Virus record (IMG/VR): IMGVR_UViG_3300030109_003951
Span: 22,601 to 86,600 of that record
Direction: 5' to 3' (one strand)
DNA: 64,000 nucleotides
From: a virus
Both the position numbers and the translations under genes were made by a program. Under the pieces are notes generated by a model, which was not told the origin of the DNA, ran no database searches, and was given only the letters and a program-made list of their open reading frames with translations. Shown here piece after piece: positions 3,595 through 64,000 of this stretch (position 1 is its first letter; the number at the start of each line of letters is the position of its first letter).

Positions 3595-4559
3595 GTATAA
3601 CAATAAACATCCCGTTCCCAGATAAAAAGGGGTTCGTTGAAAGTAAATTAAATGTAGATGATATTACAAATCATTTCTTAGATTGGCTTATTGGGTGTTA
3701 TGATGGTGGAGAAGAAATATGTGGTCTGTTACCATATTATATGTCAAACATTGAAGAAGTTTTTTCAGATAAAGAAAATACTAATTTAGATATGACTCAA
3801 GATTATTTTAAAAAGGCACTTGATGAATTAAGAAATACTAGAATTGATGAAGCAGTTCAAGAAAGAATAAATAATAAAAAATTAAATTTAGACCTTAATT
3901 TAGAAAATCCTAATTTAGAAAATTGGACTTTCCAAGATGTAGATAGTTACAAAGAAGAATTCGTAGGGGCAAAAGATGATGGTGGCCAAATTTTTAATGA
4001 ACATAGATTTGATAAATCTTTATGGTCTAATGTAGAATATACTAACTCTGATTCTAAATATGAAGATGGTATTTTTTCATACACTGCACAAGCAAAAAGT
4101 TCAACTAAAAATTTCTTAACAAAACAAATAGAAAACTCAAAATCTTATTCGAGAGTTAAGTGGGTAAGGACACAAGAAAAACCAGTTATACTAACTATGA
4201 AAAAATTATCTAAAGACTTTCTTAAAGATTTAGGTGAGGCCACACTAGATACTGATACCCTTGATGATGTGTTTAGAGGAATTAGTTGGTTTGAAAAAAT
4301 GGACGATAGTTTTTGGAAATCTAAAGCAGGGTTTAGGTCTAACTCAGATTATTTATTGAACCCTAATATTCTTCTTGAATATGATATAAAGATACCAATT
4401 ACTAAAAACTCAATAGGAAAACCCACAATTGTAGCAAAACCAATACAAGAAGTTTCTTTACAAGGCGAACAACGTAAAGGAGTAAAAGATGATTTGTGGC
4501 GACACCTAAAAGGTAAAATGAAAGTATTAGAAAGATATGTTACGGAGGCAACTACATGA
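3591..4559 (+). CDS. hypothetical protein
   Basis: Long ORF; ATG at 3591 overlaps the upstream stop. Confidence 0.65.
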   Translation: MSITINIPFPDKKGFVESKLNVDDITNHFLDWLIGCYDGGEEICGLLPYYMSNIEEVFSDKENTNLDMTQDYFKKALDELRNTRIDEAVQERINNKKLNLDLNLENPNLENWTFQDVDSYKEEFVGAKDDGGQIFNEHRFDKSLWSNVEYTNSDSKYEDGIFSYTAQAKSSTKNFLTKQIENSKSYSRVKWVRTQEKPVILTMKKLSKDFLKDLGEATLDTDTLDDVFRGISWFEKMDDSFWKSKAGFRSNSDYLLNPNILLEYDIKIPITKNSIGKPTIVAKPIQEVSLQGEQRKGVKDDLWRHLKGKMKVLERYVTEATT

Positions 4560-15900: not shown

Positions 15901-18900
15901 ACAGAAGGCTCAACTCTTATTGGTACTAGTTCTTCCTCAGATGGTAGGGCTAGAGGATATTTCTTAGATGAAATTAGAGATGTTGGAGATTTAGATATTG
16001 GTTTTTATGCAAAGGCAAGAGATGAAGGAATACACACAATAAATTCTTTATCACATTACACTGTTGTAAATATAGAAAGTGGAGAAGGTGAAGTGGCTAT
16101 TGAATTAGCCCCTAATTGTCCTGCCATTCTAGCAAGAGTAGATAGGAATGCAAACGATATAAGATTTGAAACTGTAACTGTAACCACTACACAAATAGAT
16201 GCTGCTAGTGATGATGATAGTTCTCAAACTTTTTTTGATGGTACTACTTATGCAGTAGGGCATAGAAACTCAATAACAGTAGATACTGGTAGTCCTAACG
16301 TCAATATTGGTGAAGGAAACCCTGTTTACAAAAGTGATGGAACATTCGTAGGTATTATTTGGAAAATTCTTGCCGTCACTGGGGCCACTACTCCAAGTGA
16401 ATGGCAAGTTCTTTTTTATTCGGCTCTACCAGTTAGTTTAACTGAAAATGAACAATTGTATGTTTGTAATACTAAATATACACATGGAATGTATTTTATA
16501 AATACTCAAGGATTAAATGATGGGGGTTTATTAATGCACGTCCATCCAAGTTTAGGTAACAGTAGAAAACCAATAAGATTTACTGGTAATTTTACAACTG
16601 CATATAAATCCATAACCCCGACAATAGAAAATAAGTCAACCAGTGACAGATATGGTGAGCCAATATATCGTTATATTGATTTACAAAGAGGTACAAAAGG
16701 CGGTCTTAGGAGAACTACTAATAATAGAGTAACAGGTCAAAAACATTTAGAGTATAAAGTGCAAAGTGGAAATATTCATGCTTATGCTCCAGCGTTTAAA
16801 GCAAAACAAGGAATAGTTGGGACTTTCCACCAACCTGTCCCCATCACAAAAGATAGTAAATCTGACGACTTTAATGGTGGTGGGATAGGCAGACCAGAAT
16901 CTAGAGGAGTTGGGCCAGCACATGGTAGTAATACATTAGACGAATCTATAAAAAATAAAGGGTATTCCCATTTTAGTAGAATTGCAAAAATAGCAGCCGT
17001 TTCTGGAAATGCTTGGGCAATAGATGCTGCTACAGGAACAGGCTTTGGTGACGGTGCGTCACATGGAGCAAGTGTAACAAATATTTACGGCAAAGTAGAT
17101 AATTGGAGATGGGGAAATCCTTTAGAAAAATTAAAAAATATAGTAGAAAGATTAGACCCTAAAACTATAAGTTATCATTTATTTTCCCCTTGTGATTTAT
17201 TTCCAGAATCCATGTCTAGACCAAATCATTTAGGATATGCTGCTAGAGATTTAACTGATTATAATTTAGTATTACACGATAGGGGGGCTTATAGAAGGTC
17301 TGATGTATTACATGAAAGTTATGCAGGTTCATTATCTTCACATGAAATGACAGACGAATCTTTTGAAACTGTACCAATTACTTCATCTTCTATTACTGGC
17401 GACCAAATTAAAAGATTTGGTTTGATGAGATTAATTGAATTAACATTTGATTGGCATTTTAATGTAATTGATGCTGAGAACCCTCCCGAAGATGATACTA
17501 GTATAGATGGTGATGATGAATACCAATTTTTCCCATCAAGGGCTATGAATACTTATACTCCTGCTGGTTCTTATAAAATCACAAGTTGGGATAGTATCAC
17601 AGTTGCTAATGTTCAAAAATATACTAGTGGTTCTTGGGGTACTCCTAATGAAGCGACTATTGATGCTGATTTTGCAAATCAAACTAATGAAGCGGGCGCA
17701 GGTATTCTTTATACTGAGACTGGGGATTTAATTGGGTATGTTGGTAGCAGTGGGTCAGCATCTTCCGCAGACGGCAAATTGACAATAACAGGAGGAGGAA
17801 GTCCTGTAACTCAATTTCCAACAGGTTCAGATTCATTATATACTGGGGTTGTTTTTCAATTTAGACATATAAAAACTAATATAAATCAAGGTAAATTTAG
17901 TAATGTTCTAAGAGGGGTAGGAGAAGCAGACTCTACTGTAGCCACAAGTACATCCAAATATCATCAATTAAAAGGTGCAGTATTTTCTGGAAGATATTTT
18001 GGTGGTGCAAATTATGATGACAATGCCAAAGATACCACTCTCAATTTTAGTACGGCTTCTGGTTCTATTGGGTTTGCTAAAACAGGAGATAACGCAACCA
18101 CAATACAATCTGAATTTGCTACAGGTAGTTTCACTGGAAATCCTGCTTCAACAGGCAGTGGGGTAATAACAAATATTAGTATAAACACATCTAATTTAGC
18201 AGTAGGAGATTATGTTTTTAGTAGTGAAGTTTCTGGAGCAATCGCTAGTATAGATGCTTCTGACGAAATTACTCTTGATGTTAATAACACTGGAACTACT
18301 GCTGGCCAAACAATTTTTTATGTTAGAGATGATAATTTAGCACTATTAAGATTGCCTCCAGTATTTGATAATATAAGTGGCACTTGGACTGGAAATCCGT
18401 TTTTGTTTGAAGACCCAGACAGTGTATATGCAACTCAAACTCATCATGCTCAAGGAGATATGTTTTTTACTTCTAGAGTTATGTATTATTTATCACAAGG
18501 TCTTCATATTTATAGGGGAACTAAAGCCGTTGTTCTTGATAGATTTAGTATTGAAGATACTACCTCTGAAACATTATCTAAAGGGATGGTTTTCCCTGTC
18601 TCTGATATGTTTTACAAACATTATCAAAGTGGTTCAAGCAACCAACACGTAGAACTTTTTTTAAAAATGTCTAGTAAGAAATTCCAGTCTAATGCTTCTG
18701 ATGCTACAGAATATCCCACTACTGGCCCATACATACAATTCGCTAACAAAAATTCTAATGGAGTAGTTAATACTAATGTTACAACTGAAAATGCTGCTAA
18801 TAATGTTGGGGATGGGGCGAAAGTTGTATTCAAACCTTTATTACATTTAAATCAAGGAGGGTATAGTAGCGATACTCCTGTACAAAATGAATTTTGTGTT

Positions 18901-45258: not shown

Positions 45259-46140
45259 TTACCATGCTCCTTCTATTAATTGTTCTATTGTTATTTTTTC
45301 TACCATTTGCTTATTTAATCTGATTGCGTTTAATATATCACTGTAACCATAAGATACAGTTGCTTTACTTTTGTTGTTCTTCAATGCCATAGCCAGTGAT
45401 TCCATTGAAACTTTATTTCTACCAGTTTCCCCTCTTATTTGTAGAGTTAACCATATAACTCCTGCCATGAATCTTTTTCTTTTAGTATCTAGTAAGTCAC
45501 CTAAGTTATTTGCTAATGCATAGTAAACCCTTCTAACATCGTTAGCGAAAGCAAAAGATAAATCTAATTCGTGCCTAACTTTATCTATATCTGCCTCTGG
45601 GTTATATTGATATAAAACATGTGATTTACCGAAATGGTTCGCAACCTTTTTGGCCATGCGAATAATTCTCTTTTTGGGGACTTCTGTTATCTTAGAGAGG
45701 GTGCCCACATCTACTCGTATGTTGTTATCCTTTAACGTAAAGTAAGATAATCCTGCACATCTTTCTATGATTGAGTTTCCACGAAATACATGATTTTTTT
45801 GTAGACTATTATAATTTGTTTTAAATTCTAATCTTATGTCTGGGCTACTAGTGAACTCACTTAGAATCATCCAACCTTCATTGATTGCATCGAAGTTTCT
45901 ATTTTTACGATAATTAATAACTGCTCTATTACCCACAAAAGTTCTATTGTTGTTTGACTGGTCTGAGCCTAATCCATAATATTCGTCTTTATTGTGCATT
46001 ACTTCCCCATCATATGTAATCGCCATTACAGTTTCTTCAAGGTTTTCTACTTGGATATAACCACATACATCACAAACCCATTCACCAAGTCTGTCATCAA
46101 AGGTCATCCCTGCATACTTACATTCTTCACAACTTCGCAT
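45259..46140 (-). CDS. tfb: TFIIB/TFB-like transcription initiation factor
   Basis: Zn ribbon CEEC...GEWVCDVCG followed by two cyclin-like repeats. Confidence 0.8.
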   Translation of the reverse strand: MRSCEECKYAGMTFDDRLGEWVCDVCGYIQVENLEETVMAITYDGEVMHNKDEYYGLGSDQSNNNRTFVGNRAVINYRKNRNFDAINEGWMILSEFTSSPDIRLEFKTNYNSLQKNHVFRGNSIIERCAGLSYFTLKDNNIRVDVGTLSKITEVPKKRIIRMAKKVANHFGKSHVLYQYNPEADIDKVRHELDLSFAFANDVRRVYYALANNLGDLLDTKRKRFMAGVIWLTLQIRGETGRNKVSMESLAMALKNNKSKATVSYGYSDILNAIRLNKQMVEKITIEQLIEGAW

Positions 46141-47411
46141 TACTCTTCCTCCCATACATTTTCATAAGAATCAAAATCTTCTATCATCAACGGTGTCCTA
46201 CCAGATAACTTATTATCCATAGTGCTAATTATTTTTCTAGATTCTGAATCGTTCAAACATAACATAGCCCTAGCATAAACTTGGTCGCCTATAGAACTGC
46301 CACCCATTAGATTATCAATACAAACATTTACACCCCCATACTTAGAATAAAAATTATCATTTAATTTTTTTGTTCTGAGGGCTTCGGGGCTTTCTGGATT
46401 TTGAAGATGTGTAATCATAACAGTAGATACATCTTGTAAGTTACCTTCGTTCTTATTTTTTATTTCACCGAATATAAACCAATACGCTTCCTTTCCTTTT
46501 ACAATTACTTTAAGTTGGGAGCCATGTCTTCTAACTCTAATGTCATCAAACTTCTCTAAACTTCTAACCAACTCTAGGGATTTGTCCACGACAATTTTAT
46601 CTTTCCTGTTGTGTAATAAAAATTGAATCATTGTATTAAGTTGTGATTCTGAGGGATAGTCACCTATTGTATATTTCCAAAGATAGTTTGGGCTTATACC
46701 CCACCACTTACTTCTTCTGTTTTTTCTTTCACCATTGTAAATTTTGATAAAGGCCAACATATCTTTTTCTGACATTTCGCCCCATACATTATCACTTATT
46801 TCCAAAGCATATCTTTTACTGGATATTTTTTGAACATTAAGGAGAACCTTTTCTCTCCTGTGATAAGGTCTTGTTTCGTAAATGTCTTCTAAGGTTTCCA
46901 TGTCCAAACCAACTATTTTTTTAACATAGGTTACGTGATTAAAATAATATTCTATTCTCTCTTCAATTGCTCTTTTGATTAAATTTGGCGTTTCCATATA
47001 CTTATTGAAAAACAAATAAACATCACTACTATCTCTTTTAGAAGTGCCAGCGTACATTGCTGTTTTAGCAATAGTAACCAAAGCATCTTTCTTAGTCATA
47101 ATTTTGCCCATGAGTTTGAATCGACAATCATCCTTTTGTAAAACAAAGGGAAATCCATTGATGTAAAAAGTAACAACATAAGATACAGGGGCATTTGAAT
47201 ACCAATCACCATTAGGTAAATTTTTTTCCAACACCGTACAAAAGTTTTCAATCAAAGGGTCAACTTTAGAATATCTATCCACACTAGTTTCCCAACGGGA
47301 TTCTCTCATGTGACCTTGATACTTTAAACCGTTTCTCTCATCATCGTGTGGATAAGAGTTTACTTCATTGGTTTGTATCTGTATATCTATTTCTACTCCT
47401 CTTACTTCCAT
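46140..47411 (-). CDS. unknown protein in the ubiquitin-like cluster
   Basis: 423 aa; C-terminal VCID...GDQ..ARAMLCLND segment. Confidence 0.65.
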   Translation of the reverse strand: MEVRGVEIDIQIQTNEVNSYPHDDERNGLKYQGHMRESRWETSVDRYSKVDPLIENFCTVLEKNLPNGDWYSNAPVSYVVTFYINGFPFVLQKDDCRFKLMGKIMTKKDALVTIAKTAMYAGTSKRDSSDVYLFFNKYMETPNLIKRAIEERIEYYFNHVTYVKKIVGLDMETLEDIYETRPYHRREKVLLNVQKISSKRYALEISDNVWGEMSEKDMLAFIKIYNGERKNRRSKWWGISPNYLWKYTIGDYPSESQLNTMIQFLLHNRKDKIVVDKSLELVRSLEKFDDIRVRRHGSQLKVIVKGKEAYWFIFGEIKNKNEGNLQDVSTVMITHLQNPESPEALRTKKLNDNFYSKYGGVNVCIDNLMGGSSIGDQVYARAMLCLNDSESRKIISTMDNKLSGRTPLMIEDFDSYENVWEEE

Positions 47412-53839: not shown

Positions 53840-54203
53840 GTGAATCATCTTTATTTAAATCTCTTTTCATATTCATTAAATGTTGTTTTCTTTCTAACTC
53901 ATGCATTTCTTCCATTTCTTCTATTTCTTCAACAGGCATTAAATATGTTTTTGGTATTATAGTTTTAATATTTATTATGCCCATTCTTGGAATACAAGTG
54001 ATTTCTTTTTCTCCAGTATCTACAGCCCAAAAATCATTAAATAATCCACCAGCAGTTACTATATTTCCTTCAACTGTTTTTGTTTCTTTTAATCCTGTTC
54101 TATATTCAATTTTCACATTTTTTATTATAGTGTACTTACTATATGTCTCCATAATATATCCCATCATCTTTTCATACTTAAGGTAGGTATGTGATGTGAA
54201 CAC
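53823..54203 (-). CDS. hypothetical protein
   Basis: ORF convergent with hmgL. Confidence 0.5.
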   Translation of the reverse strand: MFTSHTYLKYEKMMGYIMETYSKYTIIKNVKIEYRTGLKETKTVEGNIVTAGGLFNDFWAVDTGEKEITCIPRMGIINIKTIIPKTYLMPVEEIEEMEEMHELERKQHLMNMKRDLNKDDSPMMCN

Positions 54204-54367
54204 AATTTAATGACCCTGTGACAATATACAATTTTCGCCACTTCCAAAAAACACCCTTCCTAAATACACTCCCCGAATTTTAAATAAAAGCCCCTCTTCC
54301 AATATATTTGTGGGATAGGGCATTGTCTCTTGCATTATACCTTCTTATGTCTTATCTCACTCCTTAA

Positions 54368-54665
54368 TACATTTCATGTGAAATGTAAATGAAATGTAAA
54401 AAACGCTGTACTGCTCTTCATATTTCATATTTCATGAAAAATGGGAAATATAGGGGGTGCCCCCTAACTACCCCCCTATTATTCACCTGTACACATGAGT
54501 GAAATGTATGTAATATGAAATGTATATAATCCTATACAACGTTTTTAATTAAATATTATATGAAATATATATGAAATGTATGAAATGTATTTTTTGCCCC
54601 TTGATATAATATATAATATATAATATAATATAACTATACTAATATTATCTATTAATATAATATAC
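54368..54665. repeat. iteron-like TGAAATGTA array plus AT-rich tract (putative replication origin)
   Basis: Direct copies at 54379, 54390, 54500, 54516, 54572, 54581; inverted copy at 54368; (ATATA)n tract 54604-54665. Confidence 0.65.
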
Positions 54666-54796
54666 AACACTACTTTCGACCCCTCGAATGGTAGGCTAAA
54701 ATAATAACAATATATTGTTCGTATTAGGAGAGAGGAACTATAGGTTTAGTTTGGTTAAATGCGTTTAAGCATTGGTACTCTCGGAAAATTTCCTAG

Positions 54797-54829
54797 CATA
54801 TGGTTAAGTCTTTGGAACCCTATAAAAAA
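54797..54829. repeat. partial copy of the palindromic cassette
   Basis: CATATGGT-N5-CTTTG-N2-ACCC-TATAAAAAA (right arm only). Confidence 0.6.
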
Positions 54830-54836
54830 CGGTATA

Positions 54837-55094
54837 TTACCAAAAGTCAACCTCTCCGCTTTCGTCCATATACATTTTTAAATCATCCTCGTACCATATC
54901 AAGTCCCAACTATAACCACCGTAGGCTATCTCTTTAGTATAACCTTCAAGCCCTTCCTCGGCATTATCCCTTAATTCTTTAGCGTGTTCTATTGCTTCTT
55001 TCTCTGTGCCTGTGAATTTTTCTAATATATCCCAAGAAGGGCAAGGTAAACCACTTTTACAATAAAACGATAAGAGAATTGTGTATTCTGTCAT
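54837..55094 (-). CDS. hypothetical early protein
   Basis: GGTGA RBS. Confidence 0.55.
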   Translation of the reverse strand: MTEYTILLSFYCKSGLPCPSWDILEKFTGTEKEAIEHAKELRDNAEEGLEGYTKEIAYGGYSWDLIWYEDDLKMYMDESGEVDFW

Positions 55095-55098
55095 AATA

Positions 55099-55467
55099 TC
55101 ACCACCCGTTTGATAAAAACCATTTTAAAAGTTTTAAAAGTTCTATTTCTTCACTATTCATTAAAGAAGATATATTATCAGTAGTTATTTTTAAATTACC
55201 TGCTAGTGTCCTCCTACCCTCAAAAACTGTGCATTTATTACTTAATATCACCATAGTATAACTCACGGGTGAAGGGTTCCATTCTTGCAACCTTTTAGCC
55301 AAATAATTAGGCCGAATATCTAAATTAAAATTTATATCATCTATTCCTCCCCAAAAATCTGTTTTTGGGATTTCTAAAATTTCATCTATTTTGTTTATTA
55401 TCTCTTGTCTCATGTTTCTCAATCCTATATATTTCTCAAGTCTATTTTTCTTGTAACATGTTACCAA
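55099..55467 (-). CDS. hypothetical early protein
   Basis: ORF; start uncertain. Confidence 0.45.
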   Translation of the reverse strand: MVTCYKKNRLEKYIGLRNMRQEIINKIDEILEIPKTDFWGGIDDINFNLDIRPNYLAKRLQEWNPSPVSYTMVILSNKCTVFEGRRTLAGNLKITTDNISSLMNSEEIELLKLLKWFLSNGW

Positions 55468-55799
55468 TCTTGAACGATAAACCCACCGTCTTCATATTTC
55501 ATTGTCTCATGGTTTAATTTGTGTATTTCAATTACTTGGGTATATTCTCTAACTTCTTCTAAATCTTCAAAATTCTTATTATATGCTTGGTTTAGTTCTT
55601 CTAAATTTTCATACTCTGTGAATTCACAACAAATAGCGATAGGGTCAAATTCTATTTGTTCGCCTATGTCATTCTCAAGTTGTTCAAAGTATTCAAAGAG
55701 TGCAAGTCTCCCGTAATAACTAAAATTGTTTTCTCTGTTTATTTTTACAAATGTGTCAACAAATGTACTTTCTGTTACTGTTTCTATCATTATTGCCAC
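55461..55799 (-). CDS. acidic hypothetical early protein
   Basis: FSYYG..ALFEY...DPIAICCEFTEY. Confidence 0.6.
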   Translation of the reverse strand: MAIMIETVTESTFVDTFVKINRENNFSYYGRLALFEYFEQLENDIGEQIEFDPIAICCEFTEYENLEELNQAYNKNFEDLEEVREYTQVIEIHKLNHETMKYEDGGFIVQDW

Positions 55800-55975
55800 A
55801 CCCCTTGTTCAAATTCTCCGCAGTCATCACAGTCACCATCATAAGAAGTATTTTTTTTAGTTGCCATAGGATAAGCACAAGCGCACTTATCACATACGTT
55901 CAATACTTCGGTGTCTATTACTATTTCATTTCCGTTTACGTCTATATCTGTTTCTTCTATTGTTATTATTTTCAT
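55790..55975 (-). CDS. Cys-rich mini-protein
   Basis: CDKC...CDDC. Confidence 0.5.
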   Translation of the reverse strand: MKIITIEETDIDVNGNEIVIDTEVLNVCDKCACAYPMATKKNTSYDGDCDDCGEFEQGVWQ

Positions 55976-55989
55976 TTTTCATCATCTCC

Positions 55990-56340
55990 TTAAATTTGAA
56001 ATCCCCAATCGTTAAAATTCATAGGTCTTGCTAATTCCCAGTTGTTCTCTAATAAATTCCTAAATGTATTACTTAATTGGTTCTCAAAAATATTACAATA
56101 ATTAGAATCTAAATGGTATCTAGGGTTTCTAGGTGCATATCTATAATGGTACATTTCAAAAGCATCTCTTAAATCTAGTAAATCTCTAGTACTTGGATTA
56201 TCTAAATTTTCTAACCCTGTTTGTAATACCATCATTAAATCATTCGGTCTTGTGTTTCTATTTGTTAGTATATTGTATATACTACTTATTACTTGTTCGT
56301 TATTCATTTTTATCATCTCGTTGTCTGCGTCTCCGCCCAA
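55990..56340 (-). CDS. hypothetical early protein
   Basis: Directly downstream of a cassette promoter. Confidence 0.55.
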   Translation of the reverse strand: MGGDADNEMIKMNNEQVISSIYNILTNRNTRPNDLMMVLQTGLENLDNPSTRDLLDLRDAFEMYHYRYAPRNPRYHLDSNYCNIFENQLSNTFRNLLENNWELARPMNFNDWGFQI

Positions 56341-56359
56341 ACTGTCCTATATGGTGTCC

Positions 56360-56450
56360 CCTTATAATAACTGTCATTATTCCTCTGTATATAGTATAGG
56401 GTAGCCAAAGTCTACTACCATATGGGAAGTAACATCTTTGGGTCGACCCC
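56360..56450 (-). promoter_or_regulatory. palindrome + GGAATAATGA + TATA cassette
   Basis: TCATTATTCC 56374-83; GGGT..CAAAG..ACCATATGG..CTTTG..ACCCC 56399-56450. Confidence 0.75.
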
Positions 56451-56513
56451 GTTGAGAAATTATCAATATTTGATATGAGATAACCTCAAGAGTTCATTCT
56501 TAATAATTTCACC

Positions 56514-56867
56514 TTACCCTATTTCATACATTGATAAATTCCAAGCATTTCCTAATTCGTAATAGTAGCCATAACTCTTAATTAAATTAATGAACTCATC
56601 TTCTAAGGTTTCATATCTTTTACTATCACAGGCGTAGTTTAATACTTCATATAGTGGGCCTTCAAATGACATACTAATAGTTTCATCATTAGCATAATCA
56701 AAATAATCTGAGCCTTTAATATCTTCAATTATCTTTTTATTTTTAGAACTGTCATACCAACAAAAACATTTGTTGTTGAAATATATTCTCACACAAGAAG
56801 TTAATCTGTTTTTCTTTAACCAAGATTCAATTTTCCTAACCATTTCTACTTTTTTCATTTTAATCAC
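56514..56867 (-). CDS. hypothetical early protein
   Basis: ORF, SMSFEGPLYEVLNY. Confidence 0.6.
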   Translation of the reverse strand: MIKMKKVEMVRKIESWLKKNRLTSCVRIYFNNKCFCWYDSSKNKKIIEDIKGSDYFDYANDETISMSFEGPLYEVLNYACDSKRYETLEDEFINLIKSYGYYYELGNAWNLSMYEIG

Positions 56868-57202
56868 CTTATCCTCATTGAACTCATTAAAATTTCCATC
56901 TTGTCCTTTTTACTTATTCCAATTTCTTCATTTCTTTTGATTACTGATTCTTCAATCGCTTTGTTCATGGCTGTCATATCTAACTTACCATTTTCATCTT
57001 TGTAAGCATTAAAGTAAGCATAATACCAAGGTGCTTGTAGAGGGTCATTTCCTCTCATCGTTCTATATCCTCTCATGTTTTCAACTACCATACAAACAAT
57101 TACTCCATGTTCATCTGCTTCATGTAGATTGACATAACACATTCTGTTTCCATATCTATCTTTTAATACTGCATCTTTTCTCGCTTCCGCTTCTGTCGTC
57201 AT
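56864..57202 (-). CDS. hypothetical early protein
   Basis: ATG 34 nt downstream of GGAATAATGA. Confidence 0.65.
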   Translation of the reverse strand: MTTEAEARKDAVLKDRYGNRMCYVNLHEADEHGVIVCMVVENMRGYRTMRGNDPLQAPWYYAYFNAYKDENGKLDMTAMNKAIEESVIKRNEEIGISKKDKMEILMSSMRIR

Positions 57203-57221
57203 ATACCCTCCTGTCTTTTCC

Positions 57222-57327
57222 CCTTAATAAAGGTTGTCATTATTCCACACTATACATGTGGGGCCGTGTTCACTCCCGCTCCAAAGATATGCTCAACCAT
57301 ATGGTGTGGTCTTTGCTACCCTAAAAA
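57222..57327 (-). promoter_or_regulatory. palindrome + GGAATAATGA + TATA cassette
   Basis: TCATTATTCC 57237-46; CAAAG..ACCATATGGT..CTTTG..ACCC 57282-57321. Confidence 0.75.
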
Positions 57328-57503
57328 GAACTGATAACCCCACCAGTTACTCATTCCACCAATATCTAGGTATCATTCTTGCATCACCCCTGTGCTATAC
57401 AAGAGCGTTTCTATTTTACCAAGCACTTCATCATCGTCAATAATATACCTTTGATACTTTTTCCAAACCACCCTTAGATTCTTCACAAGTCTGTCTGTGT
57501 CAA

Positions 57504-57893
57504 TCATTCTTCTTCACCTTCCCATTCTCCATTCTTTCGTAAATGTTCTCTCGCCCTCAACATCAATTCCTCATCAACATGAAGTCCATCGGGCAACTGT
57601 TGATGAAGGGCGATGCAAAGAACGATTCGTTCGTAAATCTGCAACCGCTTGACTTCTTCTCGTAACTCTTTGACTATTTTGGGTGCTAAGTCCCAATAAG
57701 CAAGAGGCTCTTCATATCCTTCAAAAATTAATAACAATAAATCAGTGAACCACTTATGCGACTCTATTCTATCATTACGTATTACATCTGAAACGGTGTG
57801 GTTATCTGTTACCAAATTTGTGATTTCACAATTATAACTTATAACTAACTCTTCATCAGAAATCTTTGGATTAAGTGCATCTAAGGGGTGCAT
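57504..57893 (-). CDS. hypothetical early protein
   Basis: Coupled ORF. Confidence 0.55.
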   Translation of the reverse strand: MHPLDALNPKISDEELVISYNCEITNLVTDNHTVSDVIRNDRIESHKWFTDLLLLIFEGYEEPLAYWDLAPKIVKELREEVKRLQIYERIVLCIALHQQLPDGLHVDEELMLRAREHLRKNGEWEGEEE

Positions 57894-58108
57894 TATTCTT
57901 CCTCCTCACTGAAATGCCAATTATATTGCCAATGTGGTGCTTGTGCTTCTTGTCTAGCATACTCCATCAAGTTACCAATGAAATCCCTAACTAATTTCTT
58001 GTGTACTGTCACCGTAAAAGACTGATTCCAAAAACCAATCTCCTCATGATTACTGCTACCACTAGGACATCCTGCTTCTATCTGTATTGTTACCATATCT
58101 TTACTCAT
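57893..58108 (-). CDS. hypothetical early protein
   Basis: GAGGTGA RBS. Confidence 0.55.
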   Translation of the reverse strand: MSKDMVTIQIEAGCPSGSSNHEEIGFWNQSFTVTVHKKLVRDFIGNLMEYARQEAQAPHWQYNWHFSEEEE

Positions 58109-58327
58109 GCTATCACCTCATCTAAGATAGTTCCACACTTAGGACAATTGATTTCATATATTCTTATTACTTCACATAACCCATTGGAGTTAATGTAATC
58201 TTCACAACATTGGTAACTCATTCTTTCAACCCCTTCTTATTAATTTCTTCTTTATTATTTTCATAATGTTTTCTAGCCTTGAATTTACTCAAGTATCTAC
58301 TTCTTGCCGCTTTTCTTTTTACATGAT

Positions 58328-58870
58328 TCATTCTTTCACCTCCTTCGGGTAGCCAAATACTGGAACTCCTTTCACTAACTTACCATCCCATGTTCTCACT
58401 TTAGGTTTGAAACTTGCTGTGCTTATCTTACAGTGGTTCTTATACCAGTCTTGAAGATTCCTTCTCATAGTTCTAACTTCTTTTTCTGCATATTCTTGAG
58501 CAGTAACAGCACTCAAGTTTTTACCCTTAGCCATAACTGACAATATCTTACTAGACTTGTATGCTGTTATACTAACATTGTGTATTTCTTCACAGATAGT
58601 TTGAATGTTTGCTTCTACATCATAAGGAAGTTCACCCATTTTACCTCTACCTACTGGGTTGTCAATTCCATAACTAGATAGTGAGGAACAAGTCCCTACT
58701 ATACCAGCCCAATAGGATTCAAAATTATCCATATCACTTTTTACACTTTTTACCAAAGCCCTCAATGGAGTCTTGATATGTGCTGGTAGTTTCTTTTCAG
58801 TCTTGATAAACATCTCAATTAACTGAACCTTCTTTTCGTTCTTAGTCATCTCCGCATTATTCCCTGCCAT
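58328..58870 (-). CDS. hypothetical early protein
   Basis: ATG 36 nt downstream of GGAATAATGA. Confidence 0.65.
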   Translation of the reverse strand: MAGNNAEMTKNEKKVQLIEMFIKTEKKLPAHIKTPLRALVKSVKSDMDNFESYWAGIVGTCSSLSSYGIDNPVGRGKMGELPYDVEANIQTICEEIHNVSITAYKSSKILSVMAKGKNLSAVTAQEYAEKEVRTMRRNLQDWYKNHCKISTASFKPKVRTWDGKLVKGVPVFGYPKEVKE

Positions 58871-58891
58871 ATTAGTGACACGGTCATAGGT

Positions 58892-58976
58892 TGTATATAT
58901 AGTTAGTCATTATTCCTTACTATGGGGTTGCAAAGACTACACCATATGGTAGTGTCTTTGTTACCCTATAAAAAAA
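58892..58976 (-). promoter_or_regulatory. palindrome + GGAATAATGA + TATA cassette
   Basis: TCATTATTCC 58907-16; GGGGTTGCAAAGACTACACCATATGGTAGTGTCTTTGTTACCC 58924-66. Confidence 0.8.
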
Positions 58977-58980
58977 GAGA

Positions 58981-59096
58981 GGGGAAGGAAGATGAGGCCC
59001 GTCTAGGGAACCACCCCTATAAACCCCATTCACGACAGACAACAAATTACCTAACCGAAAATAATTAAAGTTTCTTCCTATTACTGTGATAACCCC
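58981..59096 (-). ncRNA. structured element, copy 3
   Basis: Plus strand reads GGGG-A-AGGAAGA...TCTTCCT-ATTACTGTGATAA-CCCC. Confidence 0.55.
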
Positions 59097-59103
59097 ATGA
59101 CTC

Positions 59104-59292
59104 TTATTTTATTACTAAATCCTCCCTGTTCCTTTTATTTTTGAAATGTTCTAAGGCTTGTTCGTAAGCATTATCACTCATAAAATATCTAACTAAGTGA
59201 TGACCAAACATATTCATTACCCCACTCATTTGTGTAGTGTAGAATTCATCCCACATATCTAATGTAATTGTGTAAGGTTTTTGCATTACCAT
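59104..59292 (-). CDS. hypothetical early protein
   Basis: Q.SGVMNMF motif. Confidence 0.55.
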   Translation of the reverse strand: MVMQKPYTITLDMWDEFYTTQMSGVMNMFGHHLVRYFMSDNAYEQALEHFKNKRNREDLVIK

Positions 59293-59906
59293 TCCTCCTT
59301 TGTTTTACTTAACTTCCATTCATCTTCTTTTTCATCCCATACTAGATACAATGGTGTGTTGTTACTATTATGATATATTGGCTTATATTGAAGTTCACCA
59401 TTCATATTGAATACATCTGCTATTTCATTAACCATAGTTTTTACAAAGTCATCATAGTAATATGTTTCCCCAGATAAGTAAATCCCAATGAAACTTTTAA
59501 TCATATCAATTTGTTTTTTCTTATCTTCCCATGTTTGTCTATATGGTCTTTTGATATTGTCATAACCTCTTACTGCTTCATCAAATAATGATTCTTTCAT
59601 TCTGTGTGCAAACGCCTCATCTTTTTCATTACCAACATTAGAACTCCATTCTGCATCAGCCATCTTTTGCACAAATTCTGTTGTGAAAGGAGAATCCCCT
59701 TTACCATACATACTCCATACTAGATTGAATCTATCTGTGGCTACATCAACTGATATTCCATATCTTTCGTCTTCATTCTTTTTTACTCTACCAATTCCAG
59801 CACTCATAGCAATCATTCCCATATTAAATGATGCTAAGAACTTCCTTTCATCTTCAGTAAATATTTCTGCTTTATCTTCATCTTTTATTCCTACTATTAA
59901 TGGCAT
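59286..59906 (-). CDS. hypothetical early protein
   Basis: 206-aa ORF, GGAGG RBS. Confidence 0.6.
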   Translation of the reverse strand: MPLIVGIKDEDKAEIFTEDERKFLASFNMGMIAMSAGIGRVKKNEDERYGISVDVATDRFNLVWSMYGKGDSPFTTEFVQKMADAEWSSNVGNEKDEAFAHRMKESLFDEAVRGYDNIKRPYRQTWEDKKKQIDMIKSFIGIYLSGETYYYDDFVKTMVNEIADVFNMNGELQYKPIYHNSNNTPLYLVWDEKEDEWKLSKTKEEW

Positions 59907-60206
59907 TTATTGCACCTCCAAATCTACAGTTTTGAATTTTTCGCCATCATCTGATGTATGAATGGTTGTTTGTTTTGATACTTTCTCATCATGTTCTGTG
60001 AAAATACTACATTCACCTTTTAATTTGAAAATACTAATATTTGGTTTAGTTAGTTTTCCATTATATCTTTTGTGCATTTTAATATAAATCGAAGTTTCAC
60101 CCATTCTAACTGTTACTGTATGTATTTCACTTCCAGAATCGTGAAAACTTGTTTGTTCTGTTATCGTTCCTAGTTCTTGTGTTGTTGCCATCTTTGTTAC
60201 TGCCAT
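59907..60206 (-). CDS. hypothetical early protein
   Basis: ATG 34 nt downstream of GGAATAATGA. Confidence 0.65.
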   Translation of the reverse strand: MAVTKMATTQELGTITEQTSFHDSGSEIHTVTVRMGETSIYIKMHKRYNGKLTKPNISIFKLKGECSIFTEHDEKVSKQTTIHTSDDGEKFKTVDLEVQ

Positions 60207-60227
60207 ATACCCTCCTAGCAGTTCCCC

Positions 60228-60313
60228 CTTATAATACTTATCATTATTCCTTTCTATGGGGTTTACAAAGTTAATACCATATGGTGTGAGTCTTTGGGCA
60301 CCCCAAAAAAAAA
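60228..60313 (-). promoter_or_regulatory. palindrome + GGAATAATGA + TATA cassette
   Basis: TCATTATTCC 60241-50; GGGGT..CAAAG..ACCATATGGT..CTTTG..ACCCC 60258-60304. Confidence 0.8.
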
Positions 60314-60409
60314 GGCGTTCTAGAGGGCAGAGCGGCCCGTTTTTAAGCGGCCCTGCCCCAAGAACAATTTTACGATTTCATATCGTCTTAGGTTATTTCT
60401 GTGGTACTA

Positions 60410-61402
60410 TTAGCATACTTCTAAGCATCTTGCTACTGCTCTTTCTCTTTTCCTTCTACCATCATTAAAAATTGCATTTTCTCTACCTTCGGGCTTCAAT
60501 TCACCAGTTGTTGAGTTCAATGTTCTTTGGTGGTCAATGAAGTAAGTATAAGCATTGTAAACAGCCCAAACAGTTCCCCTCATATTATCAACATTGTTAG
60601 ATTCATGGTCTAAATTTTCAATAATTTTGTTTCTCATGTTTTCATGTTTTCCCGAATATTTTAGAACTTTTTCACCATCATCATTATTGTACATTCCCAT
60701 TTTTGAACCAATTAAATAATCAATTAAATCAATTGATTTTTCTCTATCAATTGTAGTATCTAACATTTGATTGTATGATACTTCATAACTTTGGATAGAT
60801 TTTCTAACAGTTTCTAAAACACCATCAACAGTTGAAAATAATTTGTTATTAATTCCACTTGTATGACTTAGTTTAATTTGTGCTTCTCTTGAAAACATTG
60901 GCATTTGATTTTGGCAAAACATTCTGATACTTGTAAAAGTAATTTTTAAACTACCGCTACCATCATGAGAGTTTTGAAAAACCATGTAAACTTGAGCAGG
61001 GTCTTCTTGACCTACCATTACACTATATTCTTGGGGTAATACTGCTACACAAAACATTGAAGCCCCGTTTTTTCTGCTTCCAATTCTTTCAATAGTTGCA
61101 CCAGCATGACCACAGATTTCAATAATTGTGTTTGCTACTGTTTGATTTTGAACAATCCCATAACCTTTTGATAATCCATTACCTAAAACTTGGTCATTAT
61201 CAGTTCTAACAGTATACATATTACCTGCTATTCCATTCATTAGTTTACCATCTTCGGTTTTACATTGTCTTAATTCAACAGTAAAATTTAACCCTGCTTT
61301 ATCAAGTGCTTCATCGGGTGTCATAACACCTCTTGCTTCATTCCCTACATTTAGGAGGTTAGCCCCTCCTCTAGCGTTGTCCGTCAATACTATACCTGAC
61401 AT
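60410..61402 (-). CDS. DUF932/DUF945-family protein
   Basis: AGLNFTV, VRTD, Y.IVQN, NSHDGSGS, IRMFCQN, GTVWAVYNAYTYFIDH. Confidence 0.85.
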   Translation of the reverse strand: MSGIVLTDNARGGANLLNVGNEARGVMTPDEALDKAGLNFTVELRQCKTEDGKLMNGIAGNMYTVRTDNDQVLGNGLSKGYGIVQNQTVANTIIEICGHAGATIERIGSRKNGASMFCVAVLPQEYSVMVGQEDPAQVYMVFQNSHDGSGSLKITFTSIRMFCQNQMPMFSREAQIKLSHTSGINNKLFSTVDGVLETVRKSIQSYEVSYNQMLDTTIDREKSIDLIDYLIGSKMGMYNNDDGEKVLKYSGKHENMRNKIIENLDHESNNVDNMRGTVWAVYNAYTYFIDHQRTLNSTTGELKPEGRENAIFNDGRRKRERAVARCLEVC

Positions 61403-61419
61403 GAGGTGTCCTCATCTTT

Positions 61420-61511
61420 ATAGTATATATACTTATCATTATTCCACACTATATATTTGAGCGGGGTGACAAAGGCCACACCATATGGTAGCATCTTTGT
61501 GACCCCAAAAA
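61420..61511 (-). promoter_or_regulatory. palindrome + GGAATAATGA + TATA cassette
   Basis: TCATTATTCC 61436-45; GGGGTGACAAAG..ACCATATGGT..CTTTGTGACCCC 61463-61506. Confidence 0.8.
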
Positions 61512-61708
61512 GAAATGAGGCATAGGGGCTATGACGAAAAAAACTTCACATAAGAAATAAATGGCATCCCTGCCAACCCCTATCACCTCACTTCAAAGAA
61601 TCTATGCTGTCACCTCAACCTTATACCTTTTACAATCTTTATTGACACATACAGGCATCATAGTCCATAGGTATAACATATGTTCTCCACAATCTGAACA
61701 TGGATTAC

Positions 61709-61924
61709 TCATGGTATCTCCTCATCTTTCTCATAAGTGGTTTGTTCTTCAAAATACTTTTCTTTAAGATAAGTCTCTATTCTCAAACGCTCCGATACTA
61801 TATTTCCAAGATAACCTATCATTTGACATAATTCTTTATCTGGCAATTCATGTATCAATTTCAAGATTTCTATTTGTTCTTTGGAGTATGTCATGCTGTC
61901 ACCCCACCACATTTCTCTTTCCAT
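61709..61924 (-). CDS. hypothetical early protein
   Basis: ORF; likely start 61894 after GGGGTGA. Confidence 0.5.
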   Translation of the reverse strand: MEREMWWGDSMTYSKEQIEILKLIHELPDKELCQMIGYLGNIVSERLRIETYLKEKYFEEQTTYEKDEEIP

Positions 61925-62178
61925 ACTTTATATCCTAACTCTGTCATGTGTGCTGTGAAAGCCCCATCATAAGGAATACTTCCCATTACATCACCTGTCC
62001 CATCACCACTGTAGTAGCAAATGATTAATCCTTTATCCCTTAGACTTTCAATCACTCTAGCCTCATGGGGTTTGCCCCAACCCTTACTTGTTTCAATATA
62101 GGAATATCCATGTCCGTATTCATGAATCTGTCTTCCTACCCAATCTAAACTAAATATTTGTTGTTTACCTAATCTCAT
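61891..62178 (-). CDS. hypothetical early protein
   Basis: ORF with RBS. Confidence 0.55.
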   Translation of the reverse strand: MRLGKQQIFSLDWVGRQIHEYGHGYSYIETSKGWGKPHEARVIESLRDKGLIICYYSGDGTGDVMGSIPYDGAFTAHMTELGYKVWKEKCGGVTA

Positions 62179-62578
62179 TCTTCCTCATCCCCCTTTTTAC
62201 AACATGGCAATAATTTATATTTACATAATGCACTATAACATCCGAATTTCAACCTTTCTTTCATTGTTCTTCATCCTCCCATACAATACAGTCCTCGTAT
62301 TCCCCAACAAGTAACTTCATGTTGAGTTGTATCTCACCCTTCACACCGTCATCACGGACAACTATGAAGTAGAACTCATCTCCTATCCATTGCTCCACTT
62401 TTTCAACATCATAATTCATTCTTCATCATCCTCCACAATCTCTTCAACTTCTATATCATAAACATGGAGTAAATCCATCTGTTCATATTTCCACCCAATT
62501 GCTTCTGCTTCTGCTTCATTTGCCGCCTCAACAACTTTATGAAAATGAACAACAGTAATCACATCATATTCTGGCATA

Positions 62579-62803
62579 TCACTCAACCTCCTCTACTTCA
62601 GTAACATAACATTCATTTATCATTGCCCATATACAATTAATATCTTCACAAAAGTAATGGTCATATGCATCATGATATAATACTGGATGTTTTAAATCCA
62701 AGATATTGCAACCACAAAATGTACAATTCAAATCTTCTCTGACTTCTTCTTCAGTTGATATACCCCCACCAGTAGTTGAGGACACCTCATATCTTTTACT
62801 CAT
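62579..62803 (-). CDS. Cys-rich early protein
   Basis: CTFC...FC...C. Confidence 0.55.
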   Translation of the reverse strand: MSKRYEVSSTTGGGISTEEEVREDLNCTFCGCNILDLKHPVLYHDAYDHYFCEDINCIWAMINECYVTEVEEVE

Positions 62804-63150
62804 TCTTCACCATCTCCGTTTTTTAGTTTGTTTCTGTTCATTGCCCATAATTCTTCTTGCATTTTATTTAATTCTTGCCGATTATTTTCTATGGAATCTT
62901 CACGAAATGCACACCAAGCCTTATCATCAACCCACTTACTATAATCAGTAGGTGTAGGTGTACCTAACCATTTTCTGAACATTGCATACCAACATAACAG
63001 CCTTTCTTTTTCATTTCTTTGTTTTAATAATTCTTTGTCTAGTATATACAAAGGGTTAACCCCAAGTATTGTTTCCCAAGTATCATCACTTGTAACTTTA
63101 GCACTTTCTTGCATTGCATTTACTATTTCCCAATTAGTAAATCTTCTCAT
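62800..63150 (-). CDS. hypothetical early protein
   Basis: Coupled ORF with GAGGTGA RBS. Confidence 0.55.
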   Translation of the reverse strand: MRRFTNWEIVNAMQESAKVTSDDTWETILGVNPLYILDKELLKQRNEKERLLCWYAMFRKWLGTPTPTDYSKWVDDKAWCAFREDSIENNRQELNKMQEELWAMNRNKLKNGDGEE

Positions 63151-63479
63151 TCAATCACCTCAGTTATTTCATTTACAGCCCTGTACAACATGTCAAGGAA
63201 ATCACTTTCACCATCACTTAAATCCCAAACTCCACCATGAACACTTGCTTGAAATTGTTGGCGTTCATCTTTGTCCTTAATTCTTCTTATCTCCACCATA
63301 AGTTTCCTAGCCCCTTCTGATAAAAATGATTTCACAAAGGATTCATTTTCAGAGATGTGGTTTAATGGGTCTACCATTTTATCCACAACACTTTGATGTT
63401 TGTCTGTATTGTCTTTCATTACTTTTAACATAGATTTTACTACTATGTCTATTTCTTCTGCCATAACTTGTTTCGTCAT
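63147..63479 (-). CDS. hypothetical early protein
   Basis: Start re-assigned to ATG 63479, 34 nt from the promoter motif. Confidence 0.6.
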   Translation of the reverse strand: MTKQVMAEEIDIVVKSMLKVMKDNTDKHQSVVDKMVDPLNHISENESFVKSFLSEGARKLMVEIRRIKDKDERQQFQASVHGGVWDLSDGESDFLDMLYRAVNEITEVIE

Positions 63480-63499
63480 GTACATCCCATTATTCCCTA

Positions 63500-63580
63500 C
63501 CTTATAATACCTTTCATTGTTCACCACTATAGGGTTGACAAAGTCACAACCATATGGGCCTTTGCTTCCAAATTTTTTTT
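63500..63580 (-). promoter_or_regulatory. palindrome + promoter cassette (variant)
   Basis: TCATTGTTCA 63514-23; GGGT..CAAAG..ACCATATGG..CTTTG 63532-64. Confidence 0.7.
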
Positions 63581-63683
63581 TAAAACCCTTTTTACATCAA
63601 ACTTTTTTTTAAACATTTTTTGTTATTTTTTTTAAAAAACAATTGTTGCGAGTCGATTCTTGATGCCTATGCCCGACCCCATT

Positions 63684-63741
63684 CTTTTGTGGGGATTTTT
63701 ATCAAAAGATTCTCATCATGCTGGCTTTTGTGGGGATTTTT
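63684..63741. repeat. 17-bp direct repeat CTTTTGTGGGGATTTTT
   Basis: Copies at 63684 and 63725 in a non-coding region. Confidence 0.6.
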
Positions 63742-64000
63742 TTCAAAAGGAATAATGACATGTGATAACCTCAGCACAAACTTGACATGGCCCCACAGGA
63801 AGTTGACAACCCCCCACGCCAAAAATTCCGACAAGAGATTTTATGCTAAGATGTTATGTTGAAAATTTGTTGATTAATTCTTATGTCGCTGGAAATAGAA
63901 TAAAAGGTCTTAAAAAAATTTTGCAAGCGACAAAAAAATTTGACCCCATTTTTTGAAAAGCGATGGATAACATATTGTCCGCCCCAAACTATAAGACCAA

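Follow-up and report, generated by a model that had tools for sequence, protein, structure and literature searches.

Which sequence divides the small-gene region near the end of the virus record IMGVR_UViG_3300030109_003951 into modules, and what does this sequence do there? The record is a linear virus genome of 86.6 kb, estimated to be 92% complete, and the window, the whole stretch of DNA that we analysed, is its last 64 kb. Between positions 54795 and 63564 of the window, the element GGGGT..CAAAG..ACCATATGGT..CTTTG..ACCCC is present seven times: five copies are exact, one has a degenerate distal half and one is a half copy. All of the copies are confined to a 9-kb block of unknown genes, all on the minus strand. 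Comparison with related viruses suggests that the window's element is a derived member of an unpublished class of twin-hairpin promoter elements, which is found across the family and coincides with module boundaries. The reading that we hold, with modest confidence, is that of a regulatory cassette (terminator, dyad element and TATA promoter) of an archaeal virus, which would also be a preferred recombination site.

The repeat is confirmed as real and statistically secure. With at most one mismatch, ACCATATGGT matches nine times in the window against 2.55 expected, and seven of these nine matches lie within 54795–63558, at the seven centres given in a first-pass annotation made by a model from the letters of the sequence. 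That annotation had taken the copy near 54800 for a half copy, which a reading of 54795–54820 bears out. The composite CAAAG-N3-10-CCATATGG-N3-10-CTTTG occurs five times in the whole 86.6-kb genome and in none of 100 Markov-1 simulated genomes. A motif search of the whole genome, which the annotation had also proposed, places the composite only in the block (56406–61499), and there is no flanked copy of the element in the 22.6 kb of the genome outside the window.

Aligned on the minus strand, the seven copies read as a T-run, the element GGGGT-CAAAG-ACCATATGGT-CTTTG-ACCCC, the motif ATAG-N3-GGAATAATGA, 4–6 nt, one of the octamers TATTATAA, TATATATA or TTTATTAA, 21–23 nt and a start codon. The decamer GGAATAATGA is exact in five cassettes and is represented by a variant in c63553 (Table 1). 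This cassette, the first in the direction of transcription, consists of the proximal half-element and the centre, with an inner spacer of 2 nt and a degenerate distal outer arm (63532–63564). At the other end, c54800 is without the proximal half, the decamer and the TATA box, and the block ends there.

Two stem-loops beside a TATA box

An exact-pattern scan of IMG/VR found the element in at least 118 loci, mostly on contigs of 60–100 kb, with up to seven clustered copies per locus among the matches listed; L016, L030, L059 and L112 are loci with five to seven. In 596 Gb of genomes of bacteria and archaea, this pattern matched 35 times singly, in unrelated bacteria, and five times on one contig. 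This contig (locus L145, NZ_NZTP01000027.1), 14.8 kb long and assigned to an 'Altibacter sp.' metagenome-assembled genome (MAG), has the same gene families in the same order as the IMG/VR locus L100; thus, it is probably a mis-binned viral contig, from a magrovirus, in a Flavobacteriaceae MAG. Since clustered copies are confined to viral-type contigs, the element is specific to these viruses and not a borrowed host site. Of the IMG/VR contigs L001, L016, L025, L039, L043, L054, L081, L097, L112 and L155, many start or end inside the element-rich block, as does the window's record; repeats and microdiversity in the block may break assemblies.

In the relatives, the sequence after the proximal ACC reads YYATATA, and the distance from the proximal ACC to the next open ATG peaks sharply at 26–31 nt. 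The start of an open reading frame (ORF) lies 24–33 nt from at least one edge of the element in 85 of 145 instances, compared with 12% per direction in the background. Starts are found at both edges in 17 of the 145, and some copies may therefore act in both directions. The element is shown, by sequence and comparison, to be the family-wide mark of one putative promoter class.

For the internal structure, 161 unique instances (103 after orientation by gene direction) were parsed as GGT-S1-CAAAG-S2-ACCATATGGT-S3-CTTTG-S4-ACC. The mean helix extension is 1.66 for S1:S2 and 1.45 for S3:S4, against 0.5 with the partners of other copies (z ~20), and the folding energies are −3.7 and −4.9 kcal/mol, against −2.1 and −2.5 kcal/mol for chimeras (z −12 and −17, respectively). 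This pairing is copy-specific within single genomes, where none of 200 partner swaps was as good. S2:S3 and S1:S4 give no comparable signal (z −0.6 and −2.7, respectively). Spacer lengths likewise co-vary within the halves (rho 0.56 and 0.59) and not across the centre (S2:S3, rho −0.01). The comparison shows, at the level of predicted pairing, that most relatives carry the architecture [GGT-stem-CAAAG loop-stem-ACC] ATAT [GGT-stem-CTTTG loop-stem-ACC], i.e. two adjoining stem-loops directly beside the TATA box; L106 is an example with long stems. The loops are 5–11 nt long and contain CAAAG or CTTTG, and the hairpins lie approximately 29–60 nt before the start, upstream of the TATA box. The first-pass annotation had seen the three symmetric boxes as a single long hairpin or cruciform; pairing, energies and swaps replace this picture with two side-by-side stem-loops family-wide, and in the window the stems are nearly lost.

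The same annotation leads to the alternative of a plain double-stranded operator, in which one long three-box palindrome binds one rigid dimer and the potential to form hairpins is incidental. The near-constant spacing in the window, the long hairpin of its minimum-energy fold and the persistence of the boxes where stems are lost are what such an operator predicts. Across the family, however, box spacing varies by up to 6–10 nt, S2 and S3 neither pair nor co-vary in length, and complementarity is specific to each copy within its halves, even inside one genome. We therefore regard a plain operator as unlikely.

The proximal half also bears on how the element might be recognized. Its length ranges from 16 to 32 nt without helical periodicity, with differences of up to 12 nt among the copies of a single genome. 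The centre and the TATA box thus have no fixed phase on straight B-DNA, and their distance is constant only if the arm is looped out, which suggests recognition in the folded state.

The lineage of the window departs from this architecture. S1 and S4 are only 2–3 nt long there, except for an 18-nt insertion in the proximal outer spacer of c57300, and the twin stems comprise 3–4 bp; S2 measures 5–6 nt, as does S3 save for one copy with 9 nt. A clear proximal hairpin (GGTTG/CAACC, predicted) is found only in c63553. The TATA box is pushed approximately 22 nt away by ATAG-N3-GGAATAATGA. This decamer is absent from the 118 relatives among the matches listed and present in one closer IMG/VR contig, L155; as judged from these matches, it is specific to the window's lineage. 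In L155, GGGAATAATGC stands upstream of the TATA box and again at codons 3–5 (positions 4124, 6051, 6089, 7230 and 7277). The window has a second copy of GGGAATAATGC at 58854–58863 (minus strand), just past the start codon of a gene of family A, the commonest element-headed family, where it encodes G-N-N-A. It could act as a further operator, so that the start site is flanked on both sides, or reflect chance in the coding sequence. Because the boxes are kept without the stems, sequence recognition matters, and the stems are dispensable in at least one lineage.

In the regulatory reading that we favour, a hairpin and an oligo-T run would terminate the upstream module, the conserved dyad-symmetric element would come next, and the TATA promoter would then initiate a leaderless mRNA at the start codon or beside it. 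The recognition targets of a virus-encoded dimeric factor would be the invariant centre ACCATATGGT, the loops with CTTTG and the GGT/ACC bases of the stems. This factor would probably read the arms extruded or held as hairpins, which we propose because the distance from centre to TATA box is constant only then. Binding of the factor would switch the whole block of accessory genes on or off together. In the window, the outer arms are shrunken, and the added lineage box GGAATAATGA moves the TATA box approximately two helical turns away. It is unusual for an archaeal promoter to have twin hairpins of conserved structure but variable sequence beside its TATA box, and this arrangement points to a factor that senses the shape of the DNA. 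The window's lineage is informative here, with its boxes retained, its stems almost gone and a second box gained. Finally, as the same conserved sequence stands at every module boundary, we propose that it is also a preferred recombination site, at which promoter-plus-gene units would be replaced, lost, reordered and probably inverted between related viruses.

Probable gene exchange at the module boundaries

Homology ends were mapped in 800-nt segments centred on 232 elements, with different contigs compared. In-register homology ends within 50 nt of the centre in 30 of 63 cases, against approximately eight expected (~13% of the range); the coincidence of gene-content breakpoints with cassettes, which the first-pass annotation had offered as a check, is thus found, though it is partly expected. 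Among 17 unique one-sided pairs, 13 end 5–46 nt past the centre and four stop 47–68 nt before it, with none between. The mode of the homology ends, 13–19 nt, is the end of the distal conserved box, which limits the resolution. The distribution supports a concentration of homology ends inside the element, with a crossover that is not pinned to a single nucleotide.

The order of the element-headed families also varies among loci (A–D and D–A, E–A and A–E), and in L101 families K and A are encoded on opposite strands. Among contigs of other marine samples, one variant keeps a 156-nt cassette island (56339–56494, five differences) while the genes on both sides are replaced, and another change is the precise loss of the gene at 62800–63150, away from any cassette. 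At the strain level the block is plastic, with gene loss and replacement by unrelated sequence at 62796–63145, 55792–56338, 56495–56873 and 59302–59889. Three short-sided contig joints (54823>56466, 56429>57347 and 58124>63570) were set aside, being indistinguishable from misalignment to the repeated cassettes. Homology ends inside the element and the permuted family order make it plausible that the element is a joint for module exchange.

The enzymes of known site-specific systems were also sought. The tyrosine recombinase family PF00589 has no match in the genome (the control matched in 14 of 14 genomes), no serine recombinase was detected in it, and the Y1 transposase family PF01797 has no match there either. 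This absence favours recombination provoked by homology or by the palindromes over a dedicated site-specific system. Thus, the first-pass proposal of recombination joints that shuffle accessory genes survives as plausible in respect of the joints, and an attC-like mechanism lacks a detectable recombinase.

Two further readings give the twin hairpin itself the leading part. In one, it is the site of dedicated structure-specific recombination (attC-like or hairpin-dependent transposition) by an unrecognized viral enzyme, and the promoter is secondary. Conserved boxes with stems that vary in sequence and keep their pairing do resemble the logic of attC, the element is where homology ends accumulate, units change order and strand from one relative to another, and the multi-copy family A (51 members in 39 loci), with no fold match, could be the enzyme. 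The genome, however, nearly complete as it is estimated to be, shows no detectable tyrosine or serine recombinase and no Y1 transposase, the apparent crossovers scatter from −68 to +46 instead of falling on one nucleotide, and the window's lineage keeps the boxes with the stems almost lost. Recombination alone also leaves unexplained why each unit has its own promoter at a fixed 26–31 nt. We consider this reading improbable. In the other, equally doubtful to us, the twin hairpin would be the site of a new structure-specific DNA transaction: either a capture or inversion system, which might be independent of a recombinase or use a novel enzyme (with family A as candidate), or a supercoiling-sensing promoter that is active only with both arms extruded. 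If this reading were true, magroviruses would possess machinery dedicated to the shuffling of accessory genes that carry their own means of expression.

Transcription signals and host

In five cassettes, the TATA-like octamer (TATTATAA, TATATATA or TTTATTAA) is followed by the start codon after 21–23 nt; in c63553 the first and second in-frame ATGs follow after 16 and 22 nt, respectively. Such spacing fits that expected for an archaeal promoter giving a leaderless mRNA. The decamer lies 33–36 nt from the start codon in the same number of cassettes, if the in-frame TTG is counted for c56421, as the first-pass annotation had stated; for c63553 this holds only with the second ATG (34 nt) and not with the first (28 nt). 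No conserved −35 box is present in the cassettes. The tiny ORFs whose start ATG falls within the decamer seem to be a side effect of conservation at the DNA level.

Read along the coding strand, the T-run comes first and the palindrome after it, which rules the palindrome out as the stem of an intrinsic terminator of the bacterial type. The order of terminator, palindrome and promoter given by the first-pass annotation is borne out for T-run, element, decamer, TATA box and start codon, but not for the palindrome as the terminator stem. Oligo-T is an archaeal termination signal. A G+C-rich hairpin that, with the T-run of c60280, ends the module of the DUF932 gene, and a long stem directly before the T-run of c61484 look like terminators by predicted folding (Table 1), and a smaller hairpin precedes the T-run at 57323–57327. 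In contrast, the 127-nt spacer 58977–59103 (minus strand), from the gene at 59104–59292 to the T-run of c58945, which had been flagged as a structured element, is no more stable when folded than shuffled sequence (z +0.18).

For each hairpin, the strand reading outward from the centre, on which the inner spacers are poor in C, gives a slightly better fold; with the proximal hairpin the preference is for the sense strand (p = 6e-7). We read this strand bias as a symmetric property of the element and not as proof of an RNA function; G-T and A-C mismatches number 14 and 6, too few to separate RNA from DNA. An element acting as RNA, at the 3' end of the upstream module or on read-through, with hairpins for stability, processing or termination, would account for the G-T pairs in the better sense-strand fold and for the UNCG-type tetraloop hairpins (cccTTCGggg) that overlap the distal GGGT in relatives. 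It is at odds with the dyad symmetry, with a strand bias that mirrors that symmetry (inner spacers are C-poor outward on both sides) and with the layout in the window, where the T-run precedes the element and the element lies upstream of the TATA box and of the predicted start. There is also no Rfam match at E ≤ 0.1 in 54000–64000, and we hold an RNA element to be quite unlikely.

The archaeal assignment rests on gene content. The genome encodes an ATP-dependent DNA ligase (N, M and C domains), a family B polymerase (PolB) split over two ORFs, Cpn60, an RFC-like clamp loader, an ERCC4 (XPF-type) nuclease with a helix–hairpin–helix, and a ThiF/JAB pair. A further ORF (45259–46155) weakly resembles transcription factor B (Atlas score 0.98; PDB TFIIB zinc ribbon, E 0.0086; Pfam below threshold). 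PolB is nearest to that of the haloarchaeal tailed viruses HF1/HF2 (27% identity). The chaperonin is a bacterial-type GroEL with no close cellular relative in the genome contigs searched. Magroviruses are described as tailed viruses of ~65–100 kb with a near-complete archaeal-type replication module that contains a GroEL or thermosome gene, and in magrovirus groups B, B1 and C GroEL lies inside the replication cluster (PMC5434244). The present genome agrees with this description in its size, split PolB, ligase, Cpn60, RFC, ERCC4 and GroEL-type chaperonin, and all of the runs carrying window DNA are labelled as marine or seawater metagenomes. By gene content, the virus is most likely an archaeal tailed virus, a magrovirus of marine group II archaea. 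Since the replication genes are archaeal-type and GroEL is known in magroviruses, we treat the host as archaeal.

A Bacteroidetes phage with TTTG or TAnnTTTG promoters was considered for the CTTTG box, the GroEL resembling that of the Fibrobacteres–Chlorobi–Bacteroidetes group and the one 'Altibacter' MAG contig. It was ruled out: S3 is rarely TAnnTTTG, Shine–Dalgarno motifs are common, the replication genes are archaeal and the MAG contig matches L100. A bacteriophage intrinsic terminator with a sigma-70 promoter, strictly of the T4 type, is very improbable in spite of the hairpin and T-run structures, the Shine–Dalgarno-like motifs that are frequent genome-wide and the bacterial-type GroEL, since the replication genes are archaeal-type and GroEL is reported in magroviruses, no convincing −35 box exists, an octamer 21–23 nt from the start leaves no room for a −10 box, leader and Shine–Dalgarno sequence in most copies, and the ATG of the relatives lies 26–31 nt from the element.

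Several points weigh against the regulatory cassette that we favour. We infer the transcription starts, the 'early' timing and termination from the DNA, and there is no RNA run among the public runs carrying the region. AGGAGG stands 4 nt before the ATG in two window cassettes, which together with the weak TATA-like ATAG beside the element allows a leadered transcript as an alternative. The minimum-energy fold of the window copies is the single long hairpin (z +0.7 to −3.9), and their weak stems indicate that stem-loops are not essential here and favour recognition of the sequence boxes. Among the 19 block ORFs scanned (four ORFs below 50 aa were outside the scan), none matches a DNA-binding family, and family A has no significant fold match (Foldseek, VIA-align) and no Pfam match. 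Regarding module exchange, a viable gene replacement must break in short intergenic DNA, so the enrichment of homology ends is partly expected, and the conserved boxes blur the exact crossover point.

Relation to known systems and genes of the block

The closest functional analogues are the cassettes of T4-type phages and the intergenic repeats of halovirus HF2, and the element belongs to neither. Promoter-early stem-loop (PeSL) cassettes were described in the T4-type phages phi1 and RB49 (Arbiol et al. 2010, PMC2839356); they have sigma-70 −35/−10 boxes with an AT-rich upstream region, a poly-G/poly-C stem in variable positions and Shine–Dalgarno-led genes, and mini-circles have been shown (PMC2839356). 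PeSLs and the present cassettes are alike short intergenic repeats in which an early-type promoter, predicted in our case, is combined with a stem-loop or putative terminator. Both are concentrated in a plastic region ahead of small ORFans, and in both, insertions, deletions and replacements between relatives map to the cassettes. In contrast, our element combines a TATA box of archaeal type and starts that look mostly leaderless with an invariant centre, ACCATATGGT, between two loop-conserved hairpins, and its putative terminator is a separate hairpin with a T-run, placed before the element. The likeness to T4 early stem-loops drawn by the first-pass annotation therefore stands for promoter and stem-loop units in a plastic ORFan region, while the sigma-70 boxes have their place taken by a TATA octamer, in a genome with archaeal replication genes.

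The intergenic repeats of HF2 and other haloferacalesviruses (class I, 58 bp; class II, 29 bp) have experimentally shown promoter activity, some of it bidirectional, and positions conserved within the genus (Russ, Pfeiffer and Dyall-Smith 2021, PMC8707807). They share with our element an archaeal tailed virus and a repeated intergenic sequence with a TATA promoter and extra motifs thought to bind viral regulators. The promoter feature has its counterpart here at the sequence level, as a TATA box at a fixed distance from the starts in the window and in relatives, but promoter activity is deduced here. There is no sequence similarity between the two, and the HF2 repeats are not described as twin hairpins or recombination joints. 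Class I repeats are defined by the motifs alpha, beta and gamma, and class II repeats by AT motifs separated by C. The HF2 class I motifs beta and gamma (CTTTAAGT and CGTCTNNTAGAG) occur at chance level in the window and not at all in the cassettes.

The other comparisons are more distant. Integron attC sites are likewise imperfect palindromes between gene cassettes, with conserved boxes and stems conserved in structure but variable in sequence; however, integron cassettes are promoterless and each of them ends in a single attC site with R/L boxes, which forms one long bottom-strand hairpin, whereas here two hairpins surround the palindromic ACCATATGGT centre, the boxes differ, the cassettes carry their own TATA promoters and no IntI-type integrase (PF00589) matches, so the analogy of the first-pass annotation with attC fails. 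Its analogy with phage N4 meets a different geometry. The hairpin promoters of N4, with stems of 5–7 bp and loops of 3 nt centred near −11, are recognized on the template strand by a T7-like RNA polymerase packaged in the virion. Both systems place small DNA hairpins, with conserved nucleotides in the loop and at the base of the stem, ahead of early genes, but here the hairpins are an inverted pair with larger loops, upstream of the TATA box and well before the start. A T7-like promoter reading of GGAATAATGA..TATTATAAGGGG was considered and set aside; T7-like RNA polymerase (PF00940) has no match in the genome, but the control matched nowhere either, so that this search carries little information. 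Repetitive extragenic palindromes (REPs) and bacterial interspersed mosaic elements are likewise made up of small palindromes in inverted pairs, located in the intergenic DNA that follows a gene. The stems of REPs have a conserved sequence and depend on a REP-associated (Y1) tyrosine transposase, whereas here the stem sequence varies, a promoter stands at a fixed distance from the element and no such transposase matches, which also separates the element from hairpin elements of the IS200/IS605 type.

We found no published description of the element. A literature search with ACCATATGGT gave cloning primers only; in the magrovirus literature searched, the words promoter, palindrome, hairpin, TATA and cassette are absent, and queries for magrovirus with palindrome or promoter gave nothing relevant. 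Magroviruses are uncultured and among the most abundant archaeal viruses of the surface ocean, and the element would be their first recognizable cis-regulatory signature. It would define a co-regulated set of accessory, presumably host-takeover, genes, predict leaderless starts that can be checked in metatranscriptomes and mark the boundaries of module exchange, as an archaeal counterpart of the T4-type PeSL.

As the first-pass annotation had noted, each cassette heads one to several small unknown genes, here modules 1–6 (Table 1). Family matches in the block are limited to DUF932 and two PHROGs without known function (19 ORFs scanned), and megablast of the region against cultured phage records gave no match.

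Table 1. Cassettes, gene modules and candidate terminators in the window (positions are those of the window).
Feature	Position	Strand	Details
Cassette c63553, first in transcription direction	63479–63564	−	CAAAG 63560–63564; CCCATATGGT 63549–63558; CTTTG 63539–63543; ACCC 63532–63535
Cassette c63553, promoter part		−	Decamer variant TGAACAATGA 63514–63523; TATA TATTATAA 63502–63509; in-frame ATGs 63485 and 63479
Cassette c61484	61400–61515	−	T-run 61507–61515; element 61463–61506 (centre 61480–61489; composite 61470–61499); decamer 61436–61445; TATA TATATATA 61424–61431; ATG 61400–61402 (DUF932 gene)
Cassette c60280	60204–60313	−	T9 60305–60313; element 60258–60304 (centre 60276–60285; composite 60266–60296); decamer 60241–60250; TATA TATTATAA 60229–60236; ATG 60204–60206
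Cassette c58945	58868–58976	−	T7 58970–58976; element 58924–58966 (centre 58941–58950; composite 58931–58960); decamer 58907–58916; TATA TATATATA 58894–58901; ATG 58868–58870 (family A gene)
Cassette c57300	57200–57327	−	T-run 57323–57327; element 57259–57321 (centre 57296–57305; composite 57282–57315); decamer 57237–57246; TATA TTTATTAA 57224–57231; ATG 57200–57202
Cassette c56421	56338–56450	−	Element 56399–56450 (centre CCCATATGGT 56417–56426; composite 56406–56440); decamer 56374–56383; TATA TATTATAA 56362–56369; in-frame TTG 56338–56340; next ATG 56316
Half copy c54800	54795–54829	−	T6 54824–54829; GGGT 54817–54820; CAAAG 54810–54814; centre variant ACCATATGCT 54795–54804
Module 1	61602–63485	−	~8–9 small ORFs without family match
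Module 2	60410–61402	−	Single DUF932 gene (330 aa); PF06067, E 1.9e-33; phrog_1221
Module 3	59104–60206	−	Three ORFs (99, 206 and 62 aa), function not assigned
Module 4	57373–58870	−	Family A gene (58331–58870, 180 aa) and five small ORFs
Module 5	56514–57202	−	Two ORFs (112 and 117 aa; the second matches phrog_35453)
Module 6	54837–56340	−	~Five small ORFs, function not assigned
G+C-rich hairpin, candidate terminator	60317–60365	−	−34.2 kcal/mol; z −3.68; with T9 60305–60313 ends the DUF932 module
Long stem, candidate terminator	61512–61594	−	−37.8 kcal/mol; z −5.06; directly before the c61484 T-run

Family A proteins are approximately 170 aa long, and their genes often occur as 2–3 paralogues per locus. 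An alignment of the window gene with 46 relatives shows conserved YW.AIR and RWDG motifs, and the predicted model is all-helical and confident (predicted local distance difference test, pLDDT, 84). Family A genes have the same TATA box, followed by a leader of ~60 nt with a strong Shine–Dalgarno sequence, whereas most other element-headed genes in relatives look leaderless; the start site would lie approximately 25 nt after the element for both alike. In the relatives (L016, L019, L100, L106, L112 and others), the leader carries a conserved hairpin, UGCUUC-N-GGGG-N-GAAGCA, and then the Shine–Dalgarno sequence. This hairpin, which is absent from the window copy, could be a translational control site.

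Another element-headed family, of 97 aa (L002:4074–4370 and 16 relatives), matches the Pfam family Kyano_Gp96 (E 2.9e-18), a protein of T4-like cyanophages, and is a small gene common to archaeal and bacterial marine viruses. In the virion module, the ORF at 12997–20886 (plus strand, 2629 aa) has no PHROG match. Finally, the gene-poor end at 63600–64000 contains long A/T runs, the repeat TTTTGTGGGGATTTTT, TTGACA-like boxes and, on the plus strand, an exact GGAATAATGA at 63749–63758; this stretch may represent an end of the genome, or a region for packaging or control.

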